A stretch of DNA of 64,000 nucleotides from a virus (Duplodnaviria; Heunggongvirae; Uroviricota; Caudoviricetes), in IMG/VR virus record IMGVR_UViG_3300048593_000456, positions 26,514 through 90,513 of that record. One strand, written 5' to 3'. The stretch's first letter is position 1, and every line of letters begins with the position of its first letter. The notes under the pieces were generated by a model that made no database searches, was not told where the DNA came from, and saw only the letters and a program-made list of their open reading frames with translations. The position numbers were made by a program, and so were the translations under genes. This document shows positions 7,348-52,927 of this stretch, piece after piece.

Positions 7348-7410
7348 GAAAAAAGGATTCTTGCTTAGGACAATAAGATTGCAGAATATTATATTCTACA
7401 AGGTAAAAAA

Positions 7411-8094
7411 ATGGCCGTTACAACAAAATTTGGTGCTGTAAGAGGAACTAGAGGTGCTTCTAACCCTGTTCAAACCATTAGCGGGGTTATTATGAATAAC
7501 TCTACTACTGGCGGTGGAGGTATTACTACCTCTTTTTCAATATTAGAAGCTATTGCTTTAAATGTTAATTTTACTAGCGGTGTTCGAGAAAGAGATTCTG
7601 GAAGTTCTATTACTAGAGCTAGAAAAATTCTTTCCTCGGGTGTTTTTGCATACAATGCTGCCGCTGCTGGAACTTATGTCATTTCCAGAATTGCTACTAC
7701 TCTTGCCGGTGTCTCAACTAATGTTATGTTATTTATGGCACAAGCAAATAAAGTCAAATCTATTCATGAGTTTAATCATGACTTTGGCGTTAGAATGCTT
7801 CAAGCTTGGGTTAATGGTAGATTTTCTTGGACTGGCAAGTTAGCCAACGGTAACTCTAAAGCTTCAAGAATTATGTGGTTAAATGCTGCTGGAACCGCAG
7901 TTGCTGCTCCTTCTCCTTTAAATACTTTCTTCATGAGAGATTTAAGAGACGGAAATGCTACTGACAAAGCTGTTGATGATGCAGCTACCCCAACCAGAGC
8001 ATTACCCGGAGAACTATTCTTCCAAGTTGATTTTGTCAACAAGTCTCTAAGTGGCGGAAGCTTCTTCGATTACAAACCTATCACTGGTATGTAA
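7411..8094 (+). CDS. hypothetical protein (Gly/Ala/Ser/Thr-rich, probably highly expressed)
   Basis: 227 aa. Its composition differs from the K/E/N-rich neighbours. A good RBS precedes it and a strong terminator hairpin follows. Confidence 0.45.
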   Translation: MAVTTKFGAVRGTRGASNPVQTISGVIMNNSTTGGGGITTSFSILEAIALNVNFTSGVRERDSGSSITRARKILSSGVFAYNAAAAGTYVISRIATTLAGVSTNVMLFMAQANKVKSIHEFNHDFGVRMLQAWVNGRFSWTGKLANGNSKASRIMWLNAAGTAVAAPSPLNTFFMRDLRDGNATDKAVDDAATPTRALPGELFFQVDFVNKSLSGGSFFDYKPITGM

Positions 8095-8119
8095 TAGATT
8101 TTTCAAATTTTTTAATTAA

Positions 8120-8141
8120 GAGGGGGGCTAAAACCCCCCTC
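8120..8141 (+). terminator. GC-rich stem-loop (putative intrinsic terminator)
   Basis: GAGGGGGG-CTAAAA-CCCCCCTC, an 8-bp G/C stem, immediately downstream of the 7411..8094 CDS. Confidence 0.5.
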
Positions 8142-8157
8142 ATTTGGGGGAGTCATC

Positions 8158-8835
8158 ATGTCTTGGATTAATAATCAGCCTGTAGATTTTTTCACCAGTG
8201 CTTTTATCCATTCAGAAGTTCCTATGGTTGTTTGTGCCAATTCTGGAAAAATTCTTTGGGTGAATCGTGCCTTTGAAGATTTTATCGGCTATAATAGCTG
8301 GGAGCTTACTGTTGGTCAAACAGGCAGCGGAATCACTTGGGAAAAACTATCGTTAAATGATGAAAACCTAGAAGCAGATCGTGCCATGATTAAACAATGC
8401 ATTGACGGCGATCTAAAAAGCTATTCTATAAAAAAGCAATATATACCAAAGAACGATAAACCAGTATGGGTTGATATGCATGTCGTTAGATATCCTCTCG
8501 ATGGCGAATTAAAATATTTTATGATAACTGTGATGCCGTTAAAAAATGGAACCGCCGCAGCTTTCAATACTGCTATTTCTGCTATAAAGGAATTTACAGA
8601 CAAAATGAATGCTTACACCGCCCAAATACCTCAAATGGAAGAAAAAATTATATCTGGGGTTGAAAACAAGATTAAAACACAAACTGAAATACAAAACATT
8701 TTCTTAAACGTGGCAAAACTCGTTGAAAAGTATCCTAAGGTATCAATCGCTATAATAATGACCATATTAGTTATGATACTTGGAAATCAATTAGTTGAAG
8801 CTATTAAAAACATGAAAGCAATTATAGGTGGATAA
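8158..8835 (+). CDS. PAS-domain protein with C-terminal transmembrane anchor
   Basis: PAS-like N-terminus: FIHSEVPMVVCANSGKILWVNRAFEDFIGYNSWELTVGQ. C-terminal hydrophobic helix VSIAIIMTILVMILGNQLV. Confidence 0.4.
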   Translation: MSWINNQPVDFFTSAFIHSEVPMVVCANSGKILWVNRAFEDFIGYNSWELTVGQTGSGITWEKLSLNDENLEADRAMIKQCIDGDLKSYSIKKQYIPKNDKPVWVDMHVVRYPLDGELKYFMITVMPLKNGTAAAFNTAISAIKEFTDKMNAYTAQIPQMEEKIISGVENKIKTQTEIQNIFLNVAKLVEKYPKVSIAIIMTILVMILGNQLVEAIKNMKAIIGG

Positions 8836-9041
8836 TGAACAAAGATAAAGAGTTAAAATTGTTAGAGGCTGTTACTGCTGCTAGAAACGCTAATAAATCT
8901 AAAGGTATTGATTTTGCTTGGGATACTGTTGATATGTCATTGGATTGGGACGATCTTTTGGCTTTTGTTGAAAAGTATGTAGACAAAGAAGATGAAATAG
9001 TATTAATTTCTCCTAATCCGCTTGCTGAGGCTGAACTTTAA
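8835..9041 (+). CDS. hypothetical protein
   Basis: 68-aa track ORF with ATG start. Confidence 0.35.
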   Translation: MNKDKELKLLEAVTAARNANKSKGIDFAWDTVDMSLDWDDLLAFVEKYVDKEDEIVLISPNPLAEAEL

Positions 9042-9217
9042 AAGTAAATGGGTATAGTAGATAATTTACTCTCTCGGGCACTAGATCAGTTAGGACTCAC
9101 AAAAGAACAGGTGAGTAAAGTTAAGTCTATTATTGACTTAGTTGATGTGAAAGAATATACTGATCATGTTGAAGTTACTATTAATCTTAAAAATATAAAA
9201 ATTGAAATAAAAAAATA

Positions 9218-12202
9218 ATGACATCTGAAAAAAAGAATTTTGGCAAGAAGTTTCTGTCGGACTTGAAACTTTATAGTGACTATTTTAAATGGAATGAAAA
9301 ACTTAACCGCTACGAAAATTGGAACGAAGCTTGTAGCGATATTGTTGATGGACATAAGAAGAAATATGCTAATGTTGACCTTTCTCGGGAGCTAGATTTA
9401 GTTTTAGAGCTAATGAAATCAAAAACTATCCTTGCTTCACAAAGAAATCTACAGTTTAGACATGACCAGATAATGAGACATAATATGCGTATGTACAATT
9501 GTACGACGCTTCATTTTGTTAGTCCTAGAAATTTTGGAGATGTTCTTTATTTAGGTCTGTGTGGCTGCGGTGTTGGCTCATCTCTTTTACTTCCATTTAT
9601 TAATCAGTTACCGGAATTACAAAAGAGAGAAAAAGGTACTAAGACATATATTATACCCGACAGTATTGAGGGCTGGAAAAATGCAATCGATGTCTTGATG
9701 TCTTCTTATTTTACTGAAAGACAGGTTTTCCCCGAATACTCTGGTTATAATATTAGATTTGATTATTCGCAAATACGTGAAGCTGGTTCATTTATTAATG
9801 GCGGGTTTAAGGCTCCCGGCCCCAACGGTCTAAAAAATTCTCTCGAATCAATAGAGAAGTTGTTGGACCACTGGATACTCACACAAGGCCCGAGGCTGCG
9901 TCCTATAGCCGTCTTTGATATATTGTGCCATTCATCCGATGCTGTTCTTAGCGGCGGCGTTAGACGCTCTGCATTGTCTATGATTGTCGATCCAAACGAT
10001 AAAGAAATGATGCTTGCTAAAACAGGCAACTGGAGAACAGAAAATCCCCAGCGAGGTAGATCTAATAATTCTGTATTAATTCACAGACAGTATTGCGATG
10101 AAAATGAAATATCCCAAAGAAAGTTTTTTGACGAAATCGTAGGAATTAACGATGGAGCAAATGATTTAGGATTCGTATTCTGTAATACTTGGTTCGATGT
10201 ATTCAATCCATGTTTTACAATAGATACAAAAGTTTTAACAACTAATGGTTGGATGACTTTTGGCGAAATGATGGAAAAACAAGATACGGAAGATATTTAT
10301 ATAGTTCAAGATAAAAGAGTTAAAGGTAAAGCAGAAGGAATCCATGAATCTTGGGATACAGATCTTTCAAATACTGGTGTTGAATATAATAAAATTGGTA
10401 AAGTTGCAAAAACAGGTGAGAACGTAGATATTTATGAACTTGTTTTATCCTGTGGTAGAAAAGTTAAAGCAACGGGAAATCATAAATTCTCTACTAAACA
10501 AGGCATGAAAGAACTTTTAAGCCTTCAAATTGGCGATGATGTATTAGTTACATGCGATGAAAATATAACAACTAAAAAAGATGAAGATTTTCATGATGGA
10601 TTTTTATCTGGAATGTGTGTAGGAGACGGATACATTACCGAAGATGATGCCGGAATAAGCGTATGGGAAGATCTAGATGATGAAAATGAAGATTTGGAAT
10701 TTACTAAATCTAGCATAGAACAAATATTCAAAGAAAGCATGTCCAGAAGAATAGAATCTAAAGAATTATATTCTGATGGTAAAAAACCAATATCTACAGA
10801 TATTAAATTTAAGTTACAAAGACAAGTTGGAAATTCTGCTAAATATACACTCGCTTCTACAGGATTTAAGAAATACTTAGATATACTCGGAGTAAGAAAA
10901 GATAATTTATCTTGGCTTTATAAGAAAAGTAAAAACTTTAAGGCTGGATTTGTTGCCGGAATGTTTTTTACAGACGGGCATGTAGATTATACAGAATCAT
11001 CCAAGAGCATATCCTTAAGAATAACTCAATCAAATAAGGAGTTTTTAAACGATCTTTCGTTAATATTGCAAGAAATCGGATTTTTGGCATCTGTCTACGA
11101 TCTACTCCCGGAAGAAACAAGAAAGCTTCCTAATTCACAAAGAGTCTTACAGGATTATAATTGCAAGGCATCATATAGATTATGTATAAATGGATATAAG
11201 CAATCTTGTAAATTTATAGAAGATATTGCATTTTTACATAAAGCAAAAATAAATAAAACCAACGACATACTTAACAATCTCAAGGGATATAAAGATATAT
11301 TAAGGCATAAAAAAGTTGTAAGCATTAACTATTTAGGTAAAGAAGATGTTTACTGCTTAGAAGAAAATAACAACAGAACATTGATAGCAAACGGTATCAC
11401 GGCAGCTAGATGTTTTGAAATCGGCTTCACTCCCGTAGACACTCATGATAAACTTCAAGATATATCTTATGAACAAGTAGAAGAATGGGTCAGACAAAAT
11501 ATTCATCTATTCGGAATACAAGGCTGTAATCTAAACGAAATAAATGCCGAAAAATGCGTGCCCGAAAACGGTAAAACACTTGAAGAATCATTTCTTCGTG
11601 CTTGTGAAGGCGCAGCCATACTTGGTACTTTACAGGCTGGATATACTGATTTTCCTTTTCTATCTCCTAGAACCGAAAAATTGGTTAGACGAGAAGCTTT
11701 GCTTGGGGTTAGTATTACTGGCTGGATGAATAATCCCGCACTATTTAACGAAGAGTTGTTACGTAAAGGTGCTGCCGTTGTTGTGGAAACAAATAAAAAG
11801 GTAGCTGCTAAGATAGGTATTAATCAAGCCGCTAGAACTACATGTGTGAAACCGAGCGGAAATGCGTGTACAAAATTCGATACTATTATAAAAACAAACA
11901 TTGGTGACTTAACATTATTAGAAATTTTTAAATACTGCTTAGACGATCCCAATTTTGATACAGAAACCATTAATTTTACAGATACTTCATTTAATTTGAA
12001 AAAACCTTTAAAAGTTTATGATAAAAATAATAATGAGCAAAGTATAGAATTGTTATACATAAACGGTTTATCTGAAACATATGAAGTAGAGTTTGAAGAC
12101 GGTCAAGTTTATTCTTTTACTGAAAATCATAAATTATTAACTGATAAAGGATGGAAACTTGTTAAAGACCTAAAAGAAAATGATGAAATAATAAGCTTTT
12201 AG
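9218..12202 (+). CDS. ribonucleotide reductase large subunit, N-terminal fragment, with one complete LAGLIDADG intein and the N-half of a split intein
   Basis: Extein motifs: FNP-C(F)EIG reconstituting NPCxEI, GCNLNEIN, TTCVKPSGN. Intein 1 is about 10211..11410 and begins CFTIDTKVL. It has block B TGNHKF and two LAGLIDADG motifs, FLSGMCVGDGYI and FVAGMFFTDGHVDY. From about 11867 a second intein N-half begins, CTKFDTII...TENHKLLTDKGWKLV. The ORF then hits a stop. Confidence 0.7.
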   Translation: MTSEKKNFGKKFLSDLKLYSDYFKWNEKLNRYENWNEACSDIVDGHKKKYANVDLSRELDLVLELMKSKTILASQRNLQFRHDQIMRHNMRMYNCTTLHFVSPRNFGDVLYLGLCGCGVGSSLLLPFINQLPELQKREKGTKTYIIPDSIEGWKNAIDVLMSSYFTERQVFPEYSGYNIRFDYSQIREAGSFINGGFKAPGPNGLKNSLESIEKLLDHWILTQGPRLRPIAVFDILCHSSDAVLSGGVRRSALSMIVDPNDKEMMLAKTGNWRTENPQRGRSNNSVLIHRQYCDENEISQRKFFDEIVGINDGANDLGFVFCNTWFDVFNPCFTIDTKVLTTNGWMTFGEMMEKQDTEDIYIVQDKRVKGKAEGIHESWDTDLSNTGVEYNKIGKVAKTGENVDIYELVLSCGRKVKATGNHKFSTKQGMKELLSLQIGDDVLVTCDENITTKKDEDFHDGFLSGMCVGDGYITEDDAGISVWEDLDDENEDLEFTKSSIEQIFKESMSRRIESKELYSDGKKPISTDIKFKLQRQVGNSAKYTLASTGFKKYLDILGVRKDNLSWLYKKSKNFKAGFVAGMFFTDGHVDYTESSKSISLRITQSNKEFLNDLSLILQEIGFLASVYDLLPEETRKLPNSQRVLQDYNCKASYRLCINGYKQSCKFIEDIAFLHKAKINKTNDILNNLKGYKDILRHKKVVSINYLGKEDVYCLEENNNRTLIANGITAARCFEIGFTPVDTHDKLQDISYEQVEEWVRQNIHLFGIQGCNLNEINAEKCVPENGKTLEESFLRACEGAAILGTLQAGYTDFPFLSPRTEKLVRREALLGVSITGWMNNPALFNEELLRKGAAVVVETNKKVAAKIGINQAARTTCVKPSGNACTKFDTIIKTNIGDLTLLEIFKYCLDDPNFDTETINFTDTSFNLKKPLKVYDKNNNEQSIELLYINGLSETYEVEFEDGQVYSFTENHKLLTDKGWKLVKDLKENDEIISF

Positions 12203-12244
12203 GGTATATCATATTAAGCCTAGTAAAATAAAGGAGGGTTTAAC

Positions 12245-13063
12245 ATGCCATACGTATATTTTTTAAAAAATAAAACAACAGGACTGAAATATATAGGAGT
12301 TAAATATTCAAAAGGGTGTGACTCGAAGCTTTTTTGGTTGACATATTTCACATCCTCAAAACAAGTAAAACAACTCATAAAACTTTTTGGAAAAGAAGAT
12401 TTTTCATTCAAAATTTTAAAAGAATTTGAAAACAAATGTAGTGCATTAGATTATGAAAATAAATTATTAAAAATTGCTACTAAAAAAGATGATTATTTAA
12501 ACATGCATACAAATTTTCATGGGTTATTAACTCATGAACAAATCGAGGAAAATCATAAGAAACAAGCTATATCAGCTAGTATTACTGGTTTATTATGTTT
12601 AAAAAATAAAACTGGCATTTTTTCTTTATCCAAAAAAGAAAGGATTAAGGCATGTAGTAATGGCGGAATTAATGCAGCAAGAGTGAATAGATTATTGAAT
12701 AGAGCAATATTTAATAAAGAAATAAGAAGTATTCAGCACAAAACTCTTAAATTGAAAAAAATAAGTGCGTTTTATAATCCTGACACCAGAAAAGAAATAT
12801 CTAGAAAGGGCGGACTAAACGGCAGATTTAGTAAAAAATATTTTGAAAAAAACAATATGCCGGAAGAACAAAGAATAGAAGAACAAAGAAGAAGAGGTAA
12901 AATTGGCGGTAAAAAAAATTCTGGATTTATTTGGTATAACGATGGGTTAAAATCGTATAAATATACTAAAAAACAACAAAAAGAATTAAATTTCAATGAT
13001 TTCTTAAAAGAAAACCCAAGCTTTAAAAAAGGAAGAACAAGTGCGAATAAAAAAAATAACTAA
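12245..13063 (+). CDS. GIY-YIG homing endonuclease (free-standing, between the split-intein halves)
   Basis: N-terminal YVYFLKNKTTGLKYIGVKYS (GIY...YIG). Strong RBS AAGGAGGG. Basic C-terminal region. Confidence 0.75.
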   Translation: MPYVYFLKNKTTGLKYIGVKYSKGCDSKLFWLTYFTSSKQVKQLIKLFGKEDFSFKILKEFENKCSALDYENKLLKIATKKDDYLNMHTNFHGLLTHEQIEENHKKQAISASITGLLCLKNKTGIFSLSKKERIKACSNGGINAARVNRLLNRAIFNKEIRSIQHKTLKLKKISAFYNPDTRKEISRKGGLNGRFSKKYFEKNNMPEEQRIEEQRRRGKIGGKKNSGFIWYNDGLKSYKYTKKQQKELNFNDFLKENPSFKKGRTSANKKNN

Positions 13064-14009
13064 GTCGTTAAAACTATCGATTACTGGCGATATTCAGGTT
13101 GCAAATACAAACAGTTATCAATTAAAAAATGGGGCAGTTTCTCATAACTCTGTAGTTTTAATGACCGAGTCCGGAATTCACCCTGCTCATTCTTTAATGT
13201 ATTTTAGAGTTATGCAGTTAAACAAAAATTCCGATACTGCAAAATTTTTAGAACAAGAAATGCCGTTTTTACTGGAAGAAAGTGTATGGTCTAAAAATAA
13301 TACAGATCACGTAGTATTCGTTCCTATAATAAATCCACCAGATGGTTTGTTTAAAAAGGATATGAAGGGCGTAAAACACTTAGAGTTAATCAAGCTGGTT
13401 CAAAACAACTGGATTGTACCCGGAACTAATAGAGATATTGGTATATGCGATCTTACTAATCATAATTGTAGCTGCACGGTAATCATAGACGATAGCAAAG
13501 CAGTGACAAATTATATATGGAATAACAGAAAAGATTTCACTGCTGTATCATTTATATCCGACTATGGAGATAAAGATTTTAACCAAGCACCATTTACAAG
13601 CGTAATGAACTTTGAAGAAATTGCATCAGTGTATGGTGAAGGATCTATGTTCGCATCGGGCCTTATTGTTGACGGGCTACATTATTTTAATAATAATTTA
13701 TGGAATGCCTGCGACTGTCTTTTGGATAAAAATATTCCTATCGCCGGAACTAGAGAGCAAGTATTACTCAAAAAAGACTGGCTGAGACGGGCAAAGCAGT
13801 TCGCTAAGAATTACTTCAAAAATGATATCAAAAAAATGATATATTGCCTAAAAGATATTCACCTGTTCCACAAGTGGAAATCAATAAACAGGCAAATGAA
13901 AGAAATATCACTGGAAACCGTTTTAAATAAACCGTCCTACAAAGATGTTTCTGATTACGCTGCCGTGGCTTGTTCTGGCGGATCTTGCGAAGTTACAAGG
14001 CTTAATTAA
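13041..14009 (+). CDS. ribonucleotide reductase C-terminal fragment preceded by split-intein C-half
   Basis: GTG start with an AAGGAAG RBS. The first 36 aa MRIKKITKSLKLSITGDIQVANTNSYQLKNGAVSHN end in the canonical intein block-G NG..vHN. The +1 Ser starts the extein SVVLMTESG.... The protein ends with the redox Cys pair ACSGGSCEV, as in NrdA CESGAC. Confidence 0.65.
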   Translation: MRIKKITKSLKLSITGDIQVANTNSYQLKNGAVSHNSVVLMTESGIHPAHSLMYFRVMQLNKNSDTAKFLEQEMPFLLEESVWSKNNTDHVVFVPIINPPDGLFKKDMKGVKHLELIKLVQNNWIVPGTNRDIGICDLTNHNCSCTVIIDDSKAVTNYIWNNRKDFTAVSFISDYGDKDFNQAPFTSVMNFEEIASVYGEGSMFASGLIVDGLHYFNNNLWNACDCLLDKNIPIAGTREQVLLKKDWLRRAKQFAKNYFKNDIKKMIYCLKDIHLFHKWKSINRQMKEISLETVLNKPSYKDVSDYAAVACSGGSCEVTRLN

Positions 14010-15160
14010 TGAATAGAATATTCTATGCGTGTCAGGGGTGTTTATTTACACGCCTTGACGAAAACGAAACATCCTACCTCAATGGAGTACAATCTATTGG
14101 GGTAGATAATTCTTGGGGCACAACTACAATATTTGACTGCGGTAGATCCCAACCTAAAGATGTTTTGTATAACAGCTTTAATATAAGTTTTAACTTAGAA
14201 AGAGTTGTGGGCAATTACTCAGATCCATCTATAAGTCCTAAAGAATGCGTCGGGCCTTTTTTGCATCATATATTTTTTAAGGATAATACTAAGCCTATAA
14301 ATAGTAAAGATGCTTTTTTTCTAAAAAATTTTGGCACGGGAATTACCGGAAATACATCTAAAGACATAAAAGAGTTCGATCTATCGATCTTATACCAAAC
14401 TGACGACGGGCCAATTTTACAAAGCAGCAGACAATTACATAAATCAGTTTACAAAAGATGTTTATTAAATTCAATAAGTTATTCTATAACTAAAGAAAAA
14501 GTCCTAGAAAGTCTTTCGTTTCAGTCTAAATCTGTAGAAAATTTTGAAAATCAAGGTAGTTACCAAAAAACTCAAGTTACATTAGGTGAGCAATATTCCG
14601 GAAATAAAATACGGACCCTAATACGCCCGCGAGATATAGACAGAACAAATACCGTCTTGCCGGAAATACTGAATTCTATAACGGATACCAACACTTTTTT
14701 TGACGGAATAGAAGTTTTAGGAATCACGGAAATATCGACAGAGGCTACAATAGAATACCAAGAGATATTAGACGAAGGTGTTTGGAAAGGAAGTCCCGTT
14801 AGCAATAATTTATGGACAACGTTGCATGTTCCTATTCCCACCAGAACATCTATAAAATTTACTGCAAGGAAAGGTGCTAATATCAATTTTTTAAATACGC
14901 CAGAATTTACTAGCGGAACTGTTAAAAAATATAAAATAAGATTAGCATTTAAAACCAGAAATTATACAAATACAAGCGATGATCTATTTATAATAGATTG
15001 TGGAGAGAAAAATGTCATACAGTCATTTAATATATCTGGCGGATCTACCTCTGGAGATTTACTTGAATACGAAATGACATTTAGTGGTTTTAACGATTTC
15101 GTAACGTATTTTACACCGGCAAATAGCCCAACACTCTTACTTTTTACAGAAAGATACTGA
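14009..15160 (+). CDS. hypothetical protein
   Basis: 383-aa track ORF with ATG start. No recognisable motif. Confidence 0.4.
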   Translation: MNRIFYACQGCLFTRLDENETSYLNGVQSIGVDNSWGTTTIFDCGRSQPKDVLYNSFNISFNLERVVGNYSDPSISPKECVGPFLHHIFFKDNTKPINSKDAFFLKNFGTGITGNTSKDIKEFDLSILYQTDDGPILQSSRQLHKSVYKRCLLNSISYSITKEKVLESLSFQSKSVENFENQGSYQKTQVTLGEQYSGNKIRTLIRPRDIDRTNTVLPEILNSITDTNTFFDGIEVLGITEISTEATIEYQEILDEGVWKGSPVSNNLWTTLHVPIPTRTSIKFTARKGANINFLNTPEFTSGTVKKYKIRLAFKTRNYTNTSDDLFIIDCGEKNVIQSFNISGGSTSGDLLEYEMTFSGFNDFVTYFTPANSPTLLLFTERY

Positions 15161-15846
15161 TGTCAAGAAAAAAAACTGTACGACCACAAAGACGTAGAGA
15201 TAATGTCCAAGAGTCTTTAGTTGAAGCTAAAACTCACAGGCAGACAGAATTAATTAAATGTCTTAATAAAGATCAGTTAATAATATGCGACGGGCCTGCC
15301 GGTACTGGAAAAACTTATGTGGCCGCTGGTGTTGCCTGCGAACATCTATTGAATAAAAAAATATCTAAGATAGTAATCTCAAGATCCACACAACAATGCG
15401 GTGATTCGGGATATCTTCCGGGTTCTATTACGGAAAAGTTAATGCCTTTTATGAATCCAATATTAAGTAAACTTGAGTATTTTCTTGGCACGGAAACGTA
15501 CAAAAAAATGCTTACTGACGAAACAATAGAAATATCTCCGCTGGAAACTATGCGTGGGGAAACCCTCGAAGATGCATTTATGATTCTTACCGAATTTCAA
15601 AATGCGACATATGAACAAATCATGATGTTTGCAACACGCATTGGAAATAATACCAAGTGCGTTCTCGAAGGAGATTTAATGCAGATTGACAATAGAAAGT
15701 CAGGAGGAAAAAGATTTCACGACGAACAAAAATACTCTGAGGGTAAAGACGAGGGCGTATCTTTTATTTACTTCACAGAAGATGACATCGTGAGAAGCGG
15801 AATCGTTAAAACCATCATCAGGAACGCAAGACAAGCTTATAAATAA
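15160..15846 (+). CDS. phoH: PhoH-like ATPase
   Basis: Walker A IICDGPAGTGKTYVA. The full-length PhoH pattern is present: ISPLETMRGETLEDAFMILTEFQNATYEQIMMFATRIGNNTKCVLEGDLMQID. Confidence 0.85.
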   Translation: MSRKKTVRPQRRRDNVQESLVEAKTHRQTELIKCLNKDQLIICDGPAGTGKTYVAAGVACEHLLNKKISKIVISRSTQQCGDSGYLPGSITEKLMPFMNPILSKLEYFLGTETYKKMLTDETIEISPLETMRGETLEDAFMILTEFQNATYEQIMMFATRIGNNTKCVLEGDLMQIDNRKSGGKRFHDEQKYSEGKDEGVSFIYFTEDDIVRSGIVKTIIRNARQAYK

Positions 15847-15856
15847 TGAGGATAAA

Positions 15857-16204
15857 ATGCCCGTAAGAATTTACGAATGCAAAAAATGTAATCATCAGGA
15901 AGAAATTTTCGAATCTATTTCTGTAAAACCCGAGGAAAGAAACTGTTGTCACTGTAATAAAAAAACAATGCGTGTAGTTATACTTACCGCCCCTATATGT
16001 CAAGTAAAAGAAGTAAAAACTATCGGTCAACTGGCCGATAGTAATTGGAAGAAAATGGGAACTTATGAACGCGAAAATAAAATGCGTGAAGATAAAGTCC
16101 AAGAATCTATTCAAAAACGAGACAGTAATATTAGGCGTAATAAAGTTTCAAAAATGACTGCCGAACAAAAAGAAAAATATATTGTTACGGGAGAAATGCC
16201 GTGA
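15857..16204 (+). CDS. zinc-ribbon protein
   Basis: CKKCNHQ...CCHCNKK Cys4 ribbon at the N-terminus. Confidence 0.4.
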   Translation: MPVRIYECKKCNHQEEIFESISVKPEERNCCHCNKKTMRVVILTAPICQVKEVKTIGQLADSNWKKMGTYERENKMREDKVQESIQKRDSNIRRNKVSKMTAEQKEKYIVTGEMP

Positions 16205-16422
16205 GAGATCAAGACTGCCCGTATTATGCTCAGATTAACTTTACTGTTGATGTTTTTCCTTTTCTACATGACGGATCTTTAGATCCTAATAAGCTCACCG
16301 AGAGCGAACTGAGAGATAGGGGAATAACAAAAAATGCTGTATTCGGTGTTAATGGTTTTAATTTAGAAGACTGTATAAAAAAACTTACGGAGGCTTTAAC
16401 CAAGATTAGTTATGAAGATTGA
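16201..16422 (+). CDS. hypothetical protein
   Basis: GTG start overlapping the upstream stop. 73 aa. Confidence 0.3.
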   Translation: MRDQDCPYYAQINFTVDVFPFLHDGSLDPNKLTESELRDRGITKNAVFGVNGFNLEDCIKKLTEALTKISYED

Positions 16423-16717
16423 AGAACAGTGGATTGAAAAAGAAGATGTCGAAATTTTCTACGGAAAAGGCGGAAATGTCGTGGAAAACGGCGACTGTCT
16501 TGCTAAAATACTAGAGTCGAGCAAGACGAACTATTATTTCATTTGGCTGACTCGCGGAAATCTTTACGATCCATACGGAATTGATGTTCTAAAAAGAAAC
16601 AGTTCTGTCTGTAAATTCGTAAGAGTAAGTAGAGATGTATTTGACAGCTACTTTAAATACCTTAAAACTAAAAATAAAGCACATTATAATAACGCAAACA
16701 GAATGTATAGAGGATAA
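16412..16717 (+). CDS. hypothetical protein
   Basis: Track ORF with ATG start. No recognisable motif. Confidence 0.35.
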   Translation: MKIEEQWIEKEDVEIFYGKGGNVVENGDCLAKILESSKTNYYFIWLTRGNLYDPYGIDVLKRNSSVCKFVRVSRDVFDSYFKYLKTKNKAHYNNANRMYRG

Positions 16718-16719
16718 AA

Positions 16720-17067
16720 ATGGCTAAAAAGAAAATGGCTGTCGGGCCTTTAACCAACAAGGAAAAAGAGTACATAAACAAAAACAGAGATAAGGGCGTA
16801 GAACTCTTAGCGAAGAAGTTGGGGCGTAGAGTTGAGGCCGTGGATAGATTTCTGAACGGGCCTAAAGAACCTGCAAAAGAAACTAAGCCCGTAAACAGAA
16901 ACGACCCCGAGGCTTTCGTTATGAATAATCTACTTGCTAAGAGGGAAGGCTATAATGTAGTCGTTATGACCGAATCTGCATCTATGTATATGGACGAAAA
17001 GCGAAAGCAAAGAAGCAATAAGCCTAAAGACAATAGTTTTATTCATACGTTCAGGAAAAATGATTGA
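16720..17067 (+). CDS. hypothetical basic protein
   Basis: Track ORF with ATG start. Lys/Arg-rich. Confidence 0.35.
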   Translation: MAKKKMAVGPLTNKEKEYINKNRDKGVELLAKKLGRRVEAVDRFLNGPKEPAKETKPVNRNDPEAFVMNNLLAKREGYNVVVMTESASMYMDEKRKQRSNKPKDNSFIHTFRKND

Positions 17068-17581
17068 TCTAACTTTTAAATTTGATTTTTACATAAAAGA
17101 CTTAATAAGAAAACTAGAAATGCTGTGGACAGTTACATTAAATGATGGAACTGTTGTATATTCTGACTATGATAGATACGAAGAAGCCCCTTGGCATCGC
17201 TTAGTAAAATATTGCAGAGAAACAAAGCTTTATCCAGTAAAGGTTAAAAATCTTATGTTTGGAGCACCCGAAATGGTTTTACTTGAAAACCAAGAGGGGC
17301 TAGATGGGCTATTCATTAAGCGTGGCTGCATTAAAGATATAGAAATTGATTCCGGTAATGGAAATAGTATTTCTTATAAAAAGTTGGTTGCGGGAGTTTA
17401 TAATCCTGTTACTAATAAGATAGACGTTAAAAAATTTTGCTGGCCCGAGAACGAACTTGAGCCGCTACAAGAAACAAGATTACTAACACTTGAAAATTTA
17501 GAGGACATGTTTTTTATAGATGGACAAGAAAAGGACAGAAAAAAAGCCATACTGCTCGCCGACGACAGGAGAGCCATGTAG
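17060..17581 (+). CDS. hypothetical protein
   Basis: Track ORF with ATG start. No recognisable motif. Confidence 0.35.
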   Translation: MIDLTFKFDFYIKDLIRKLEMLWTVTLNDGTVVYSDYDRYEEAPWHRLVKYCRETKLYPVKVKNLMFGAPEMVLLENQEGLDGLFIKRGCIKDIEIDSGNGNSISYKKLVAGVYNPVTNKIDVKKFCWPENELEPLQETRLLTLENLEDMFFIDGQEKDRKKAILLADDRRAM

Positions 17582-17972
17582 TGCCGCACAATATATAGCG
17601 GAAATTGTTTGCCTACGTAATTTTAAAAAGAAGCAGATGGGCGATCCATCATTCAAGTTTTGGAATAAAGAAGAAAAAAGTATCTACCAAGGACAAGTTG
17701 TAACAGCAAATAAACTCATTAATGAGTATGGAGTTGAAGCTGTTTTAGATTATATAAATTTTAATAAAGGTATATACTCTCTCGGGCATTTTAATCCCAT
17801 AAAATTTATAAAAGACGGGATATCTAAAACAAAATGGATTCTAGACAAAAAGAGTTCCGTTTCTAAGAAAAATATAGAAGAAGAAAAACAACAGGAAGTT
17901 CCGCAGACAAATTTCGAAATTCCCAAACCTAAACAAAAAACAACATTAATTGATAAACTAAGGAACACATGA
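17520..17972 (+). CDS. hypothetical protein (start uncertain; an alternative in-frame ATG lies near 17637)
   Basis: Overlaps the previous ORF by about 60 nt in another frame. Confidence 0.3.
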   Translation: MDKKRTEKKPYCSPTTGEPCSAAQYIAEIVCLRNFKKKQMGDPSFKFWNKEEKSIYQGQVVTANKLINEYGVEAVLDYINFNKGIYSLGHFNPIKFIKDGISKTKWILDKKSSVSKKNIEEEKQQEVPQTNFEIPKPKQKTTLIDKLRNT

Positions 17973-20002
17973 GCGATAAAAATCTGGATGCCATTTTAAA
18001 GGAAATAAAAAAGAAGCATGGTAATATTATCATTAAGGGTAATGAATTACTTAATCAAAGAAAAGATCATAAAACAATTTCTGTTAGTCCTTCAATAGAT
18101 CTTGCTTTAAAAGGTGGTGTAAGAGAGGGGACTTGGTTAATGTTGTCGGGAGCACCTAAATCGGGCAAGGCACAGCCTATGGATGCTATTATCTACACTC
18201 CTTCTGGACCTACAGTGTTTGAATCTCTTTCAGTTGGGGATGAAATTTGTGGTATTGATGGAAAGCATTGTATAGTCAGAGCTATATACCCCCAAGGAGT
18301 AAGAAAGGTTTATAAGGTTCTTTTTAGTGACGGTACTAACGTAGAGTGTGACGGGCATCATTTGTGGCCGGTATCTGTCAATAGAGTAAATTCGTCTGTT
18401 TTACTTAAGACTACAGAGGAGCTACTATCTAAAGTAAGCTATCCCGACCGCGATAAATGGAAAATAAAATATAGCCACTGTGATTTTAATACTAAGGAAA
18501 CTGTAATAGATCCTTTTGTACTAGGTGTTATATTAGCAGATGGATACGTAGATGCAAATCAGCGTCTTTACATAAAAAATGCAAAACCATACATACTTGA
18601 AGAATTTAATACGAAGATATCTCAATATAATTGCATATTAGATTCTACTGGGGATAGTGGTTATCAAGGCATTATATTAAGCACTGAGAAAAATAATTAC
18701 TTAAACTATTTTATACAAAATTACATGAAATCTTCTCCGGGTCAAAAAGTTATAACACGTAGCTCTTTTAAGGTTCCGGATTTATATAAATACAACTCGT
18801 TTTATAATAGAAACGAACTACTTCGGGGATTTTTAGGATCTAACGGTTATCTTCATCCTTCTGGATACTATGAGGTCGAATCAGCAAACACCCAATTACT
18901 GCGTGACATAGCCGAAGTATCCAGATCATTAGGCTATCCGACTTATATTAACGACAGAAAAGACAGTAGGCAAAGACTAACAATTAATAACTGCGGGGTT
19001 ATGTTACATGCATTAAAAGAAAATAATTCGCCATGCCCGGTAGAAAATTATAAAACCATAAATCTTATTACGGAAGTTGGCGATAAATACTGTCAGTGCA
19101 TAGAAATTGATCAGGACGGTTTATATTTAACTAATGGATTTAATGTTACCCATAATACCACAACTGCTATGCAGCTAGCATTTAATTGTCAGAAAGAAGG
19201 CCGTCCGGTTATCTATATTAATGCCGAGGGTAGATTAAGCGAAATGAATTTTGATGTTCGCGGGCTTGATCCTGAAAAGATGCAGATTATTACGGCAGAA
19301 GATAAACCATTATCCGCAGAAATATTTTTAGATACTGCATTACAACTTATATCAGCAAAAGAAAATGTAGGTGCTTTATGTATTATCGATTCGGTATCTG
19401 CTTTAATACCATCTAGAGAACTAGAAGAAGATGTAACAGGCATGGCTAGACCGGGATTGCCCAAGCTATTATCTAATTTTGTTAAGAAAGCCGGTCAAAT
19501 TGTCCCTAATAACAAGATTACAATGTGCATGATTACGCACCTTATTACTAATACTAGCGGCTATGGACCAAGTAAAATGGCCGACTCTGGTGTAAAGATA
19601 CAGTATCAGGCAGATACTAGAATGGAGGTAAAATCTATTTCACCGTGGGAGCACAAAGAAAAACAGGTCGGGCAAGCCGTAAACTGGAAAATATATTATA
19701 GCTCTAAGGGTGCTACAGGCGTTGAGTGCCAATCATGGATTCGTTACGGCGAAGGTATTGACAGTGCTCAAGAACTGCTTATACTTGGCGAGGAACTGTC
19801 GTTAATCTCCAAGGCCGGTGCGTGGTATACACTAGACTTCCTAAAGTCAAAGCCCGAGGAATTCAAAAAGATTTTGCCCGATGGAGACATTGACAAAGCA
19901 TGTAAATTTCAAGGGCAAGAAAAAGTCTATAACTTTATTAATGATAACCCCGCTGTACTCGAACTTTTACAGAATGATATTTTCGAGATGCTTGCATCAT
20001 GA
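17969..20002 (+). CDS. RecA/UvsX-family recombinase interrupted by a class-3-like LAGLIDADG intein
   Basis: The extein reconstitutes SGAPKSGK|TTTAMQLAFNCQKEGRPVIYINAEG, matching RecA GPESSGKTTLTL...CAFIDAEH. The C-terminal RecA core is present: IIDSVSALIP...MITHLITNTSGYG. The intein is about 18170..19156. It starts with Ala and has block B DGHHLW, LAGLIDADG motifs LGVILADGYV and LRGFLGSNGY, block F KYCQC and block G NGFNVTHN|T. Confidence 0.8.
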   Translation: MSDKNLDAILKEIKKKHGNIIIKGNELLNQRKDHKTISVSPSIDLALKGGVREGTWLMLSGAPKSGKAQPMDAIIYTPSGPTVFESLSVGDEICGIDGKHCIVRAIYPQGVRKVYKVLFSDGTNVECDGHHLWPVSVNRVNSSVLLKTTEELLSKVSYPDRDKWKIKYSHCDFNTKETVIDPFVLGVILADGYVDANQRLYIKNAKPYILEEFNTKISQYNCILDSTGDSGYQGIILSTEKNNYLNYFIQNYMKSSPGQKVITRSSFKVPDLYKYNSFYNRNELLRGFLGSNGYLHPSGYYEVESANTQLLRDIAEVSRSLGYPTYINDRKDSRQRLTINNCGVMLHALKENNSPCPVENYKTINLITEVGDKYCQCIEIDQDGLYLTNGFNVTHNTTTAMQLAFNCQKEGRPVIYINAEGRLSEMNFDVRGLDPEKMQIITAEDKPLSAEIFLDTALQLISAKENVGALCIIDSVSALIPSRELEEDVTGMARPGLPKLLSNFVKKAGQIVPNNKITMCMITHLITNTSGYGPSKMADSGVKIQYQADTRMEVKSISPWEHKEKQVGQAVNWKIYYSSKGATGVECQSWIRYGEGIDSAQELLILGEELSLISKAGAWYTLDFLKSKPEEFKKILPDGDIDKACKFQGQEKVYNFINDNPAVLELLQNDIFEMLAS

Positions 20003-24391: not shown

Positions 24392-24462
24392 TGCGGGCTA
24401 GAGTAAAGGCAACTCGTCGGTCTCATAAGCCGAAGCTACTGGTTCGATTCCAGTGCCCGCAA
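24392..24462 (+). tRNA. tRNA-Met (CAU); could be initiator, elongator or lysidine-modified Ile2
   Basis: Acceptor TGCGGGC/GCCCGCA. D-arm GAGT-AAAGGCA-ACTC. Anticodon arm TCGGT-CTCATAA-GCCGA. T-arm ACTGG-TTCGATT-CCAGT. Confidence 0.75.
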
Positions 24463-24479
24463 TATTTTTTGAGGTTATT

Positions 24480-25745
24480 ATGAAGCTTGAAGTTCAAAAC
24501 GAAAATTATTGTGCTACAATTGTACGTGTTCATGCATTGGTAGATCTTCCGGGTCTGGATAATCTTAAGGGTGTACAATTCTTTGGATTTTCCTCGCTTG
24601 TTCCTAACGATACAAGCGTGGGTGGTTTAGCGGTTTTGTTCACGGCTGAAACCCAGCTTGCCGACGCTTATTGTAAGCACAACAATTTGTATCGTGATGG
24701 AACTAAGAATTCTGATACAGAAAAGACCGGGTACATCGAAGATAATCGCCGCATTCGTGCTGTCAAGCTTAGGAAGCACGTATCTTCGGCACTACTTATG
24801 CCTCTGGATTCTTTGGCTTGTTTTGATGGCGTGGATACCAATCTACTGAAAGAAGGAGATACTTTTACTCATATTAATGGAGTTGAAGTATGTACTAAGT
24901 ATGTAATCAAAACCTTCCAAAAGAACGGTACCAACCAAAAGAACCCTAAACTTAAGGAAGGCCCGCGAATCGACACTAAGCTTTTGCCGGAACATATTGA
25001 TACTTCACACTACCTGAAAAATGAACATCTTATCGCAGAAGACTGTGATATTGTTGTCACTCAAAAAATTCACGGAACGAGCGGAAGATTTGCACACCAA
25101 GTTTGCCGACGCAAGCTTGGATTTTTTGAGCGAGTTTTGAAGCGTCTTGGTTTTAATATTAACGATAAGACTTATGATTATTTTGCGGCTTCCCGTAGAG
25201 TAATCAAGGACACTAAGGCAAATACTAATTTTCAACATTACTACAATAAGGATATTTGGAATGAAGTTCTTGATGAAATCAAGCATCTAATTCCTAAGAA
25301 CTATGTATTGTATGGTGAAATAGTAGGATATATCGGTGATGCAGAAATTCAAAAGAACTATTCTTACGAATGCGAGCCGGGCCAACATAAGCTCTATATC
25401 TATAGAGTTTCAGTGGTAAATCCTGATGGTGTATCCGTAGACTTGTCTTGGGATGCTGTGAAAGAATTTTGTCAAGTTACCGGACTTTCGTATACTCCCG
25501 AAGTATGGAAAGGAAAAAAGTCTGACTTTGATGTTGACAACTACATGGATGTATGCTATGCTAAAGATCTCGGGCTTTCGCAGTGTGTAAAACTTGCGAA
25601 GAATTCTCCGTGTGATGAAGGCGTAATTGTCCGCACCGAAGGAATGATGCCAAAGTTTTATAAAGCTAAATCTCCTGTATTTTTGGCACATGAAACCAAA
25701 CAACTTGATACGGGCGATGTTGATGTAGAAAGTCAGGAAAGCTAA
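24480..25745 (+). CDS. RNA ligase, Rnl2-like
   Basis: Nucleotidyltransferase motif I VTQKIHGTSGRFAH, matching the Rnl2 signature KIHGTN. Motif IV YVLYGEIVGY. Motif V-like KFYKAKSP. Start placed at the ATG with an RBS GAGG. Confidence 0.65.
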   Translation: MKLEVQNENYCATIVRVHALVDLPGLDNLKGVQFFGFSSLVPNDTSVGGLAVLFTAETQLADAYCKHNNLYRDGTKNSDTEKTGYIEDNRRIRAVKLRKHVSSALLMPLDSLACFDGVDTNLLKEGDTFTHINGVEVCTKYVIKTFQKNGTNQKNPKLKEGPRIDTKLLPEHIDTSHYLKNEHLIAEDCDIVVTQKIHGTSGRFAHQVCRRKLGFFERVLKRLGFNINDKTYDYFAASRRVIKDTKANTNFQHYYNKDIWNEVLDEIKHLIPKNYVLYGEIVGYIGDAEIQKNYSYECEPGQHKLYIYRVSVVNPDGVSVDLSWDAVKEFCQVTGLSYTPEVWKGKKSDFDVDNYMDVCYAKDLGLSQCVKLAKNSPCDEGVIVRTEGMMPKFYKAKSPVFLAHETKQLDTGDVDVESQES

Positions 25746-41581: not shown

Positions 41582-42517
41582 ATGAACTATTTAGAAATTA
41601 TGGCTAATAAGCCTAAAAACCCAAACTATATACTCCGTCAATTTGACGAAAATCTTGCAAAGATTATGGATGAGGGTTATGATATGGAAGATAGAACCGG
41701 AACGGGCTGTAGATATTTGCCGGGTATAACTACAACCATAGATATATCGGAAAGAGTTCCAGTGCCAACGCTCAGGGCAACTAAATGGAAATCTATGCTG
41801 GCAGAATATTTATGGTTTCTAACTGGTTCGGATCGTATAAGCGACCTTAGAAATAAATTTGGTAGTAAAGTGTGGGATTCTTGGCAAAAATCTGAATGGG
41901 CTAAATCTAAGGGTTTGCCGGAAGATTCGATTGGTTATGGTTATGGGCCAAATTTAACGCATTATGGAGCAAATTTAAACTCTCAAAACAATAGACTATT
42001 AATAGAAAAAAGACCTGATTTAAATAATTATTTTGGTTTCAATCAAGTAGATCATGTTATAAATTTACTTAAAACAAATCCTAATTCCAGAAGAATTCTG
42101 TGGTCATTCTTTAGACCCGATAAACAAGGCCCGGAAAATGTAGTTTTAGATCCATGTCATCTAATTTATCAGTTTATACCTGAACCAAATAGAAAATTAT
42201 CGTGCTGTGTTTACATACGCAGTAATGATATGTTTGTGGGCGCGTTAAGCACAAATCTTCAAGGTGCAGCTTTTTATACTTATATGCTTGGGCAAATTTG
42301 CGGATTTACTCCGAGTAAATTGATAGTAATGTCTGCTCACGCACATATTTATAAAAATCATTTTACTTATGTTGAGGAATATTTGTCCAGAGAAGAAGTT
42401 GATTCTCCTGTATTAAAATTACAAAAAGTTGATAGTATTTATGACTATACTTTAGATAATTTTGAGCTAACAGACTATAATCCTCATCCATCAATGAAAG
42501 TTCCGATTTCTGTCTGA
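41582..42517 (+). CDS. thyA: thymidylate synthase family protein (ThyA or dUMP hydroxymethylase)
   Basis: DRTGTGCRYLPG. Catalytic LDPCHLIYQFIP. RSNDMFVGALSTNLQG retains the specificity Asn, i.e. a dUMP substrate. Confidence 0.8.
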   Translation: MNYLEIMANKPKNPNYILRQFDENLAKIMDEGYDMEDRTGTGCRYLPGITTTIDISERVPVPTLRATKWKSMLAEYLWFLTGSDRISDLRNKFGSKVWDSWQKSEWAKSKGLPEDSIGYGYGPNLTHYGANLNSQNNRLLIEKRPDLNNYFGFNQVDHVINLLKTNPNSRRILWSFFRPDKQGPENVVLDPCHLIYQFIPEPNRKLSCCVYIRSNDMFVGALSTNLQGAAFYTYMLGQICGFTPSKLIVMSAHAHIYKNHFTYVEEYLSREEVDSPVLKLQKVDSIYDYTLDNFELTDYNPHPSMKVPISV

Positions 42518-52717: not shown

Positions 52718-52927
52718 GATTTAGAAGACTTTTTGAGACGAGAATTACTGGCGTACTTACTAACTTCCCTAGTAGGAACCTGTAAAAATTCAGCAATTTC
52801 GATAGTATTTTTAGTTGCAAAATGTTCTTTGAAGTATTTTTTTGTTCTACAGTTAACATAGCGTGATGACTCCCTTTGTATGAAAATTTGTGTTACCGCT
52901 ATATTACACACACTTTATGAGGAAAAG

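Follow-up and report, generated by a model that had tools for sequence, protein, structure and literature searches.

The third step of protein splicing is described in reviews as the cyclization of the C-terminal Asn residue of the intein or, rarely, of a Gln, Asp, or Glu residue in its place (PMC4031507, PMC2807308). In block F, position F:4 is occupied, in order of frequency, by Asp, Cys, or Trp, and position F:13 is mostly His (PMC4031507, PMC2807308). The terminal residue is not the same in all inteins: the ribonucleotide reductase (RNR) intein of Chilo iridescent virus (CIV) splices better with its native Gln than with Asn (PMC4031507). In RNRs, inteins are inserted most frequently just before the thiyl-radical Cys, on its N-terminal side (Dassa et al. 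2009, PMC2677866). In this study, we have analyzed an intein at that position, referred to here as intein 1, in the RNR gene of a Caudoviricetes virus (IMG/VR record IMGVR_UViG_3300048593_000456). The stretch of DNA that was analyzed, referred to as the window, comprises 64,000 nucleotides (positions 26,514 to 90,513 of that record), and coordinates are given within it. Intein 1 (10211..11410, plus strand) ends in Arg.

On the basis of comparative sequence analysis, we conclude that intein 1 is probably a functional and still mobile intein whose C-terminal bond would be broken by chemistry other than that of the inteins described so far. As judged from their sequences, the Arg-terminal inteins at the RNR thiyl-radical-Cys site are a distinct, essentially monophyletic clade, which apparently has not been described before. 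The original prediction for this locus was silent on the Arg residue at F:13, on the Cys residue at F:4, and on the family-wide nature of the trait.

Results

The RNR open reading frame (ORF) occupies 9218..12202 on the plus strand, encodes 994 amino acids, and is class II-like (RTPR-like). Its best NCBIfam RNR model was TIGR02505 (RTPR), a partial match that fell below the cutoff, and the RNR-II insertion domain (RNR-II_ins_dom) gave a weak, partial Pfam match. Intein 1 comprises exactly 400 amino acids, residues 332 to 731 of this ORF. The N-extein (9218..10210, plus strand), to which the partial TIGR02505 and RNR-II_ins_dom matches belong, ends in ...WFDVFNP and is colinear with an intein-free homologue, P0004; the middle extein (11411..11866, plus strand) opens with the Cys+1 residue (11411..11413) of the NPCxEI active-site loop. 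Because the intein-free homologue, which is encoded on a phage contig syntenic with the window (L022) and is 96% identical in the flanks, reads FNPCFEIGFTPVDTHDK, the insertion point is FNP|CFEIG, so that the +1 residue is the thiyl-radical Cys of the loop and the last residue of the intein is Arg. In the window sequence only, the common CF would permit the junction to slide by 1 to 2 residues, an ambiguity that is mostly removed by relatives such as P0010 (NP|CFTG...VARR|CVEIG).

When intein 1 and a second intein, intein 2, were both removed, the joined exteins comprised 769 amino acids and were colinear with the 769-amino-acid intein-free protein, as is expected of in-frame insertions whose removal restores the host protein. 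The predicted peptide across the joined junction is VFNPCFEIGFTPVDTHDK. The insertion on the catalytic Cys at FNP|CFEIG, as given in the original prediction, was therefore borne out by the intein-free homologue, and the length of 400 amino acids, the block B motif, and the two LAGLIDADG motifs were likewise confirmed by the ORF coordinates and by Pfam. A second RNR was not found among the window ORFs of at least 300 amino acids.

Pfam, AlphaFold2, and Foldseek assigned to intein 1 a Hint splicing domain and a LAGLIDADG homing endonuclease. The Pfam matches in the ORF were Intein_splicing (E 2.9e-17) and LAGLIDADG_3 (E 7.8e-12), the latter spanning ORF residues 574 to 638. Block A (CFTIDTKVLTTNGW; 10211..10252) begins with Cys1 (10211..10213), and the NCBIfam model TIGR01445 (intein_Nterm) starts exactly on this residue, with 40.4 bits against a cutoff of 24.5. 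Block B (GRKVKATGNHKFST; 10454..10495) carries Thr88 at B:7 (10472..10474) and His91 at B:10 (10481..10483), so that both the block A nucleophile and the TxxH motif of block B are present. Two LAGLIDADG motifs, DGFLSGMCVGDGYI (10595..10636; ...VGDGYI) and KAGFVAGMFFTDGHV (10940..10984; ...FTDGHV), make up a double-motif endonuclease that is predicted to cleave DNA; their D-G pairs are nearly invariant among the Arg-terminal inteins (alignment A1). Block F (EDVYCLEENNNRTLIANG; 11342..11395) is supported by conservation in the Arg clade and by an alignment of profiles with the Ssp DnaB intein, in which Cys382 (11354..11356) fell on Asp F:4 and Arg389 (11375..11377) on His F:13; Glu385 (11363..11365) occupies F:7. 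The engineered fast variant of the Ssp DnaB intein, M86, also has Arg at F:13. In block G (ITAAR, followed by CFEIG; 11396..11410), Ala399 stands at G:6, where His is usual, and Arg400, encoded by AGA (11408..11410), stands at G:7, where Asn is usual, which upholds the earlier reading of ANGITAAR|C with His-Asn replaced by Ala-Arg. All of these features lie on the plus strand.

With respect to the residues expected of a class 1 intein, the +1 position is Cys, one of the three accepted nucleophiles (Cys, Ser, and Thr); however, the terminal residue is neither Asn nor one of its rare substitutes (Gln, Asp, or Glu), and the assisting His residues of G:6 and F:13, which are common in class 1 but not obligatory, are both absent, with Ala at G:6 and Arg at the F:13 position. 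The AlphaFold2 model of intein 1 had a predicted local distance difference test (pLDDT) score of 92.7 and a predicted template modeling (pTM) score of 0.92, and its best Foldseek matches among PDB folds were the endonuclease-bearing inteins TliVMA, PI-PfuI (an RNR intein), and PI-SceI, all of solved structure, together with mini-inteins. As modeled, the fold is that of a bona fide intein. The segment EGIHESWDTDL (10334..10366, plus strand), with a conserved Trp48, is absent from the Gln- and Asn-terminal inteins of the same site; it was considered as a clade-unique element and rejected, since in the Ssp DnaB intein the EIWAIN segment aligns with it. The GC content of intein 1 is 30.7%, compared to 37.4% for the N-extein.

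Representatives of 50%-identity clusters, 1.84 billion in number, were searched in full with HMMER (phmmer). This gave 1391 matches, and the best 150 of the 1391, almost all of which were RNR inteins at NP|C.E, were examined. Both junctions could be extracted from 128 of the top matches, and the residue counts rest on these 128. Position G:7 was Asn in 51 inteins (23 ending in His-Asn and 28 in x-Asn), Gln in 43, and Arg in 34, and no other residue was found there among the 128 full inteins. The Arg group therefore consists of 34 representatives, one per 50%-identity cluster, which are 25 to 48% identical to the window intein and were aligned as A1. Seven positions are the same in all 34: Cys at A:1, Thr at B:7, His at B:10, Cys at F:4, Glu at F:7, Arg at G:7, and Cys at +1. 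The F:13 equivalent is Arg in 33/34 members and Lys in the remaining one, and G:6 is Arg in 28/34 and Ala in 3/34, Ala being the residue of the window's subclade.

The sister clades differ at F:4, which is Cys in 32 and Asp in 11 of the Gln-terminal inteins and Cys in 21 and Asp in 7 of the x-Asn inteins, compared to 34 and 0 in the Arg clade. A further column, that of Met99, is specific to the Arg clade, and the other clades mostly have Arg or Lys there. In a neighbor-joining tree calculated without the G:6 and G:7 columns, one node held all 34 Arg inteins and only two others, P0153 and P0138, which end in TTRQ|C and AVKN|C and have a basic residue at G:6; these two may be evolutionary intermediates, reversions, or tree noise. 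The closest non-Arg relatives of the clade are Gln- or x-Asn-terminal inteins, mostly with Cys at F:4.

Extra loci were found with a degenerate DNA pattern, DV[YF]C.xE...R(10)RCxE, which represents the signature of blocks F and G. This pattern imposes the Arg and Cys residues and thus yields a biased sample, so the unbiased residue counts are those of the phmmer set. The matches comprised 1 GTDB genome locus, 18 IMG/VR viral contigs (up to 340 kb), and 29 metagenome contigs. The GTDB locus (L003; CALCZR010000051.1, 1867..6318), from a Saccharibacteria metagenome-assembled genome (MAG), encodes a 1483-amino-acid RNR that has two inteins: one is canonical (CYPSGTIVKTTDG...FVTHN|S), and the other is Arg-terminal, with degenerate LAGLIDADG motifs but an intact end, ...IVARR|CAEIL. 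A phage-like gene resembling an ATP-dependent DNA ligase lies just upstream of this RNR gene, and the contig may be phage DNA that was binned into the MAG.

The intein has also lost its endonuclease in other loci. In a related RNR (P0030; L010/L035), the same site is occupied by a 158-amino-acid mini-intein, NP|CFTKEMRVLTTDGYFS...EDVYCLEENNHRTIIVEDIVVAR|CFEIG, which ends in IVVAR; a protein word search with this mini-intein gave no matches. In L010/L035 and in L003, the splice blocks have outlasted the endonuclease.

For close pairs of inteins, the ratio of nonsynonymous to synonymous substitution rates (dN/dS) was 0.062 between the window and L011, 0.054 between the window and L004, 0.046 between L011 and L004, and 0.088 between L006 and L017; for the exteins, it was 0.046 in the comparison with the intein-free allele. 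Intein-bearing alleles, compared with each other, gave extein values of 0.035 and 0.09, and the divergence between these exteins arose while the alleles carried the intein. Both intein 1 and the surrounding RNR exteins are under strong purifying selection, and there were no frameshifts or stop codons in about 50 loci. Carriage of the inteins varies among near-identical phages of one lineage: neither is present in L022, only intein 1 is present in L011, and intein 1 and intein 2 are both present in the window and in L004. This presence/absence polymorphism, the lower GC content, and the conserved acidic residues of the LAGLIDADG motifs form the pattern that is expected of a homing element.

The intein-free contig L022 (ENA ERZ28593783 scaffold_47, 102 kb) has the same gene order as window positions 7400..20000, with an RNR gene that lacks inteins; the shared order is 227- and 225-amino-acid ORFs, RNR, a 391-amino-acid ORF, PhoH, a Zn-ribbon protein, and a RecA protein of ~670 amino acids. 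L011 is an IMG/VR contig of 169 kb.

Discussion

In this study, we have shown that the Arg end of intein 1 is not peculiar to one assembly. The same end recurs in independent assemblies at 97 to 99% identity (L011, L004, and L032), at 66 to 68% (L002/P0001), and at 47% (L014/P0007), and several of these differ synonymously in the last codons; a more distant intein (P0002/L001), which is 37% identical, ends in LVARR|CFEIG and has CGT CGC where the window has GCT AGA. Because the same junction is found in independent assemblies with synonymous differences (L002, L004, and L032 as well as L011), a local sequencing error at 11395..11415, for which a check had been recommended, is excluded. The terminal Arg codons were AGA (11), AGG (6), CGA (4), and CGC (1) in 22 loci and AGA (17), CGA (6), AGG (4), and CGG (2) in another 29 loci from metagenomes. 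Five codons (AGA, AGG, CGA, CGG, and CGC) from both Arg codon families thus encode the terminal Arg, and from this variety it follows that selection acts on the amino acid. A nonstandard genetic code was considered and rejected, since both AGR and CGN encode the terminal Arg; the conserved Arg of the RNR GGVRRSA motif in the window is also encoded by AGA. A junction at Asn394 was rejected as well, since this position is variable in the Arg clade (N16, E12, Q2, G2, D1, and S1); the true junction is fixed by the intein-free allele. The proposal that a sequencing or assembly error, a misplaced junction, or recoding hides a true Asn, Gln, or Asp residue is already refuted.

A different proposal is that the Arg end blocks C-terminal cleavage, so that the RNR is never matured and its gene is a pseudogene, tolerated through the deoxynucleoside triphosphate supply of the host. 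All three canonical step 3 residues are missing, the intein C-terminal model found no match, and PMC7765530 cites a precedent, the Arthrobacter Arth_1007 DnaB, in which a noncanonical intein occurs as a pseudogene. However, the alternative residues are invariant across the 34 cluster representatives, dN/dS is 0.05 to 0.09 for the intein and 0.035 to 0.09 for the exteins of intein-bearing alleles, the colinearity over 769 amino acids is exact, about 50 loci are free of frameshifts and stops, and the mini-intein keeps its splice blocks. The evolutionary and fold evidence together make a dead intein in a dead gene unlikely. The original prediction had raised a splicing-defective intein and a nonfunctional RNR; this is contradicted by an Arg residue and a block F set that are invariant across a large clade, and further by the purifying selection, the presence/absence polymorphism, and the Arg-ended mini-intein. 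Its alternative, a noncanonical mechanism, is favored by the evolutionary evidence, from which we infer splicing itself.

It could also be that the intein cleaves without ligation, leaving two RNR pieces that act as a noncovalent "genes-in-pieces" enzyme, or that it serves as a slow or conditional RNR switch. The phage RNR Aeh1 NrdA, which is split by a homing endonuclease, can stay functional (PMC2677866), and the window RNR is already split at intein 2. In having intact N-terminal and altered C-terminal residues, intein 1 resembles the Hint domains of Hedgehog and bacterial intein-like (BIL) proteins. However, this would place the break at the very tip of the active-site loop, with Pro on one side and the thiyl-radical Cys on the other, and release of the C-terminal fragment would still require cleavage at Arg|Cys and thus non-Asn chemistry in any case; the invariance of Cys+1 is uninformative, since the host site dictates this residue. 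We regard this explanation, too, as quite improbable. Still less credible is a trans-acting factor, such as a phage or host protease or a thiol cofactor, that recognizes a basic (R)R|C junction: a basic dipeptide is present at the junction in 28/34 members, but the window's subclade has Ala-Arg rather than Arg-Arg, proteolysis cannot ligate exteins, and the clade spans such different phages and RNR types that a common partner is unlikely.

In the reading that we favor, that of a functional, mobile Arg-terminal intein, the early part of the reaction would be ordinary. The residues for steps 1 and 2 (Cys1, the Thr and His of block B, and Cys+1) are intact, and because the residues for the N-S acyl shift and for trans-thioesterification are all invariant, these steps are probably canonical; the N-extein would be moved to Cys1 and then to Cys+1, as in ordinary class 1 inteins. 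All three usual step 3 residues (Asn G:7, His G:6, and His F:13) are replaced, and a different set (Cys F:4, Glu F:7, Arg F:13, and Arg G:7) is conserved instead. Given these replacements, the bond between the intein and Cys+1 would have to break by different chemistry.

We tentatively prefer a route in which the N-epsilon of Arg400 would attack its own carbonyl to form a six-membered delta-lactam. An N-to-S shift onto Cys+1 may come first and give an Arg thioester, a species that is known to lactamize, and neighboring Arg residues together with Glu F:7 could lower the pKa of the guanidinium and act as a base. The ring would have as many members as the glutarimide that has been put forward for inteins ending in Gln at this RNR site. 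The N-epsilon of Arg is topologically equivalent to the N-epsilon-2 of Gln, and a change from Gln to Arg requires one nucleotide change, a single transition (CAR to CGR). No residue other than Asn, Gln, and Arg was seen at G:7, and the side chain of each of these three would provide a nitrogen for the closure of a 5- or 6-membered ring. When activated Arg is used in peptide synthesis, its main side reaction yields the delta-lactam (PMC7352207). A close second, possible but somewhat less so, is a route in which Cys F:4 would attack the Arg carbonyl in the manner of an Arg-specific cysteine protease, while the guanidinium would be held by Glu F:7, which would serve as a P1-Arg pocket. The Cys F:4 residue of class 3 inteins attacks a junction peptide bond and adjoins both junctions in models (PMC2807308). 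A third route appears doubtful; in this case, acyl shifts at both junctions would be followed by direct aminolysis, and the intein would be freed by hydrolysis or circularization. On balance, we lean toward the view that the Arg-terminal RNR inteins constitute a fourth mechanistic class of protein splicing, one that would resolve the branched intermediate with no cyclization of Asn, Gln, or Asp.

Several points weigh against a functional intein with a new chemistry. The pKa of the guanidinium is about 13 to 14, which makes it a poor nucleophile unless it is deprotonated, and we know of no protein precedent for the cyclization of Arg on a peptide bond. A phage can survive on the RNR of its host, so the conservation of the exteins is strong evidence but not proof. 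The NCBIfam intein C-terminal model gave no match to intein 1 even at E<=1, and the neighbor-joining tree is a crude method. All members of the Arg clade come from uncultured phages or MAGs, and no Arg-terminal inteins were found in GenBank phages, where tblastn returned only SPbeta-type RNR inteins at 24 to 25% identity; when the RNR locus was compared to GenBank phages by blastn, the only match was an irrelevant stretch of 200 bp of RNR sequence. A literature search, which covered open-access text only, returned nothing relevant on a C-terminal arginine in inteins or on a class 4 intein.

The existence of a large, conserved, and mobile Arg clade in which both assisting His residues are replaced suggests that there are inteins that break the C-terminal bond differently. 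If this is true, a peptide bond would be broken by a route that has so far had no example in proteins, whether through an Arg delta-lactam or through thiolysis by Cys F:4; this would widen the catalogue of self-processing protein chemistry and might provide protein engineers with a new module for cleavage or ligation. The natural 158-amino-acid mini-intein is a compact form that is suited to testing and engineering. The four allelic flavors at the RNR thiyl-Cys site (His-Asn, x-Asn, x-Gln, and x-Arg) provide a natural series for the rebuilding of an intein active site, and L022, L011, and the window provide a natural presence/absence series for homing studies.

The remaining parts of the locus lie downstream of the middle extein. 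Intein 2 is split and has a "fractured gene" layout. Its N-terminal half (CTKFDTII...ENDEIISF, followed by a stop; 11867..12202, plus strand) ends the 994-amino-acid RNR ORF; a free-standing gene for a GIY-YIG (SegE-like) endonuclease (12245..13063, plus strand; Pfam PF19835, E 9.2e-8) lies between the halves; and an ORF at 13041..14009 (plus strand) encodes the C-terminal half (...GAVSHN|S), which ends at ~13148, followed by the RNR C-extein. This last ORF has a GTG start and a 23-nucleotide overlap with the end of the endonuclease gene, and its junction reads GAVSHN|SVVLMTESG. The intein 2 site is uninterrupted in L011 and in the intein-free P0004 (KPSGNASVVLMTESG), and the split form is present in L004 and L010. 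The layout is of the same kind as that described by Dassa et al. 2009, although the insertion point differs from their NrdA and NrdJ sites.

Elsewhere in the window, a RecA/UvsX-like protein of 677 amino acids (17969..20002) carries an intein in its P-loop (GAPKSGK|AQPMDAIIYT...KYCQCIEIDQDGLYLTNGFNVTHN|TTTAMQ), with LAGLIDADG and Hom_end matches. This intein starts with Ala and has Trp at B:12 (GHHLW), Cys at F:4, and Thr at G:5, the WCT signature of class 3, so that the 64-kb window holds three inteins of three different types. A thymidylate synthase (41582..42517; Pfam E 6e-66), a NAMPT/NAPRTase-family enzyme (52880..54556), and an RNA ligase (24453..25745) are encoded by genes for auxiliary metabolism and repair of the kind that large phages typically carry.

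Among known systems, intein 1 is reminiscent of the atypical class 1 inteins, which have a C-terminal Gln or Asp (the CIV RNR intein and the Pol II inteins of Pyrococcus abyssi and Methanoculleus marisnigri; PMC4031507). It shares with them Cys1, the Thr and His of block B, and the +1 nucleophile; the penultimate His is often absent from them too, and the CIV intein also resides in an RNR. Unlike these inteins, intein 1 ends in Arg and has Arg at F:13, where His or Asn is usual, its clade usually has Arg at G:6, and it lacks an amide or carboxyl side chain for the known cyclizations. Like the class 3 inteins, for example that of the mycobacteriophage Bethlehem DnaB (PMC2807308), intein 1 has an invariant Cys F:4 and is phage associated. 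However, class 3 inteins have no N-terminal nucleophile, whereas intein 1 keeps Cys1, and two of the three parts of the WCT signature fail, with Phe rather than Trp at B:12 and Ala rather than Thr at G:5; moreover, the terminal residue of class 3 inteins is still Asn, and its cyclization is part of their mechanism.

Relatives with canonical ends differ from intein 1 in both features. The bnrdE intein of Bacillus phage SPbeta, which resides in an RNR large subunit at what is assumed to be the equivalent site, aligns over 96% of the query at 24 to 25% identity; PI-PfuI (PDB 1DQ3) is a structural relative; and canonical ...VHN|C inteins are found at the intein 1 site of other RNRs from metagenomes. 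These SPbeta-type, PI-PfuI, and canonical inteins have a His-Asn end and Asp at F:4, whereas intein 1 has an Arg end and Cys at F:4. Hedgehog and BIL domains adopt the Hint fold and keep the N-terminal residues for the acyl shift, and some types of them lack the C-terminal Asn; a BIL domain (2lwy) was among the weak PDB profile matches to intein 1. Unlike intein 1, which is inserted at the catalytic Cys of an RNR and carries a LAGLIDADG domain, the Hedgehog and BIL domains are not located in a conserved catalytic residue of an essential enzyme, lack a homing endonuclease, and are not expected to join their flanking sequences.

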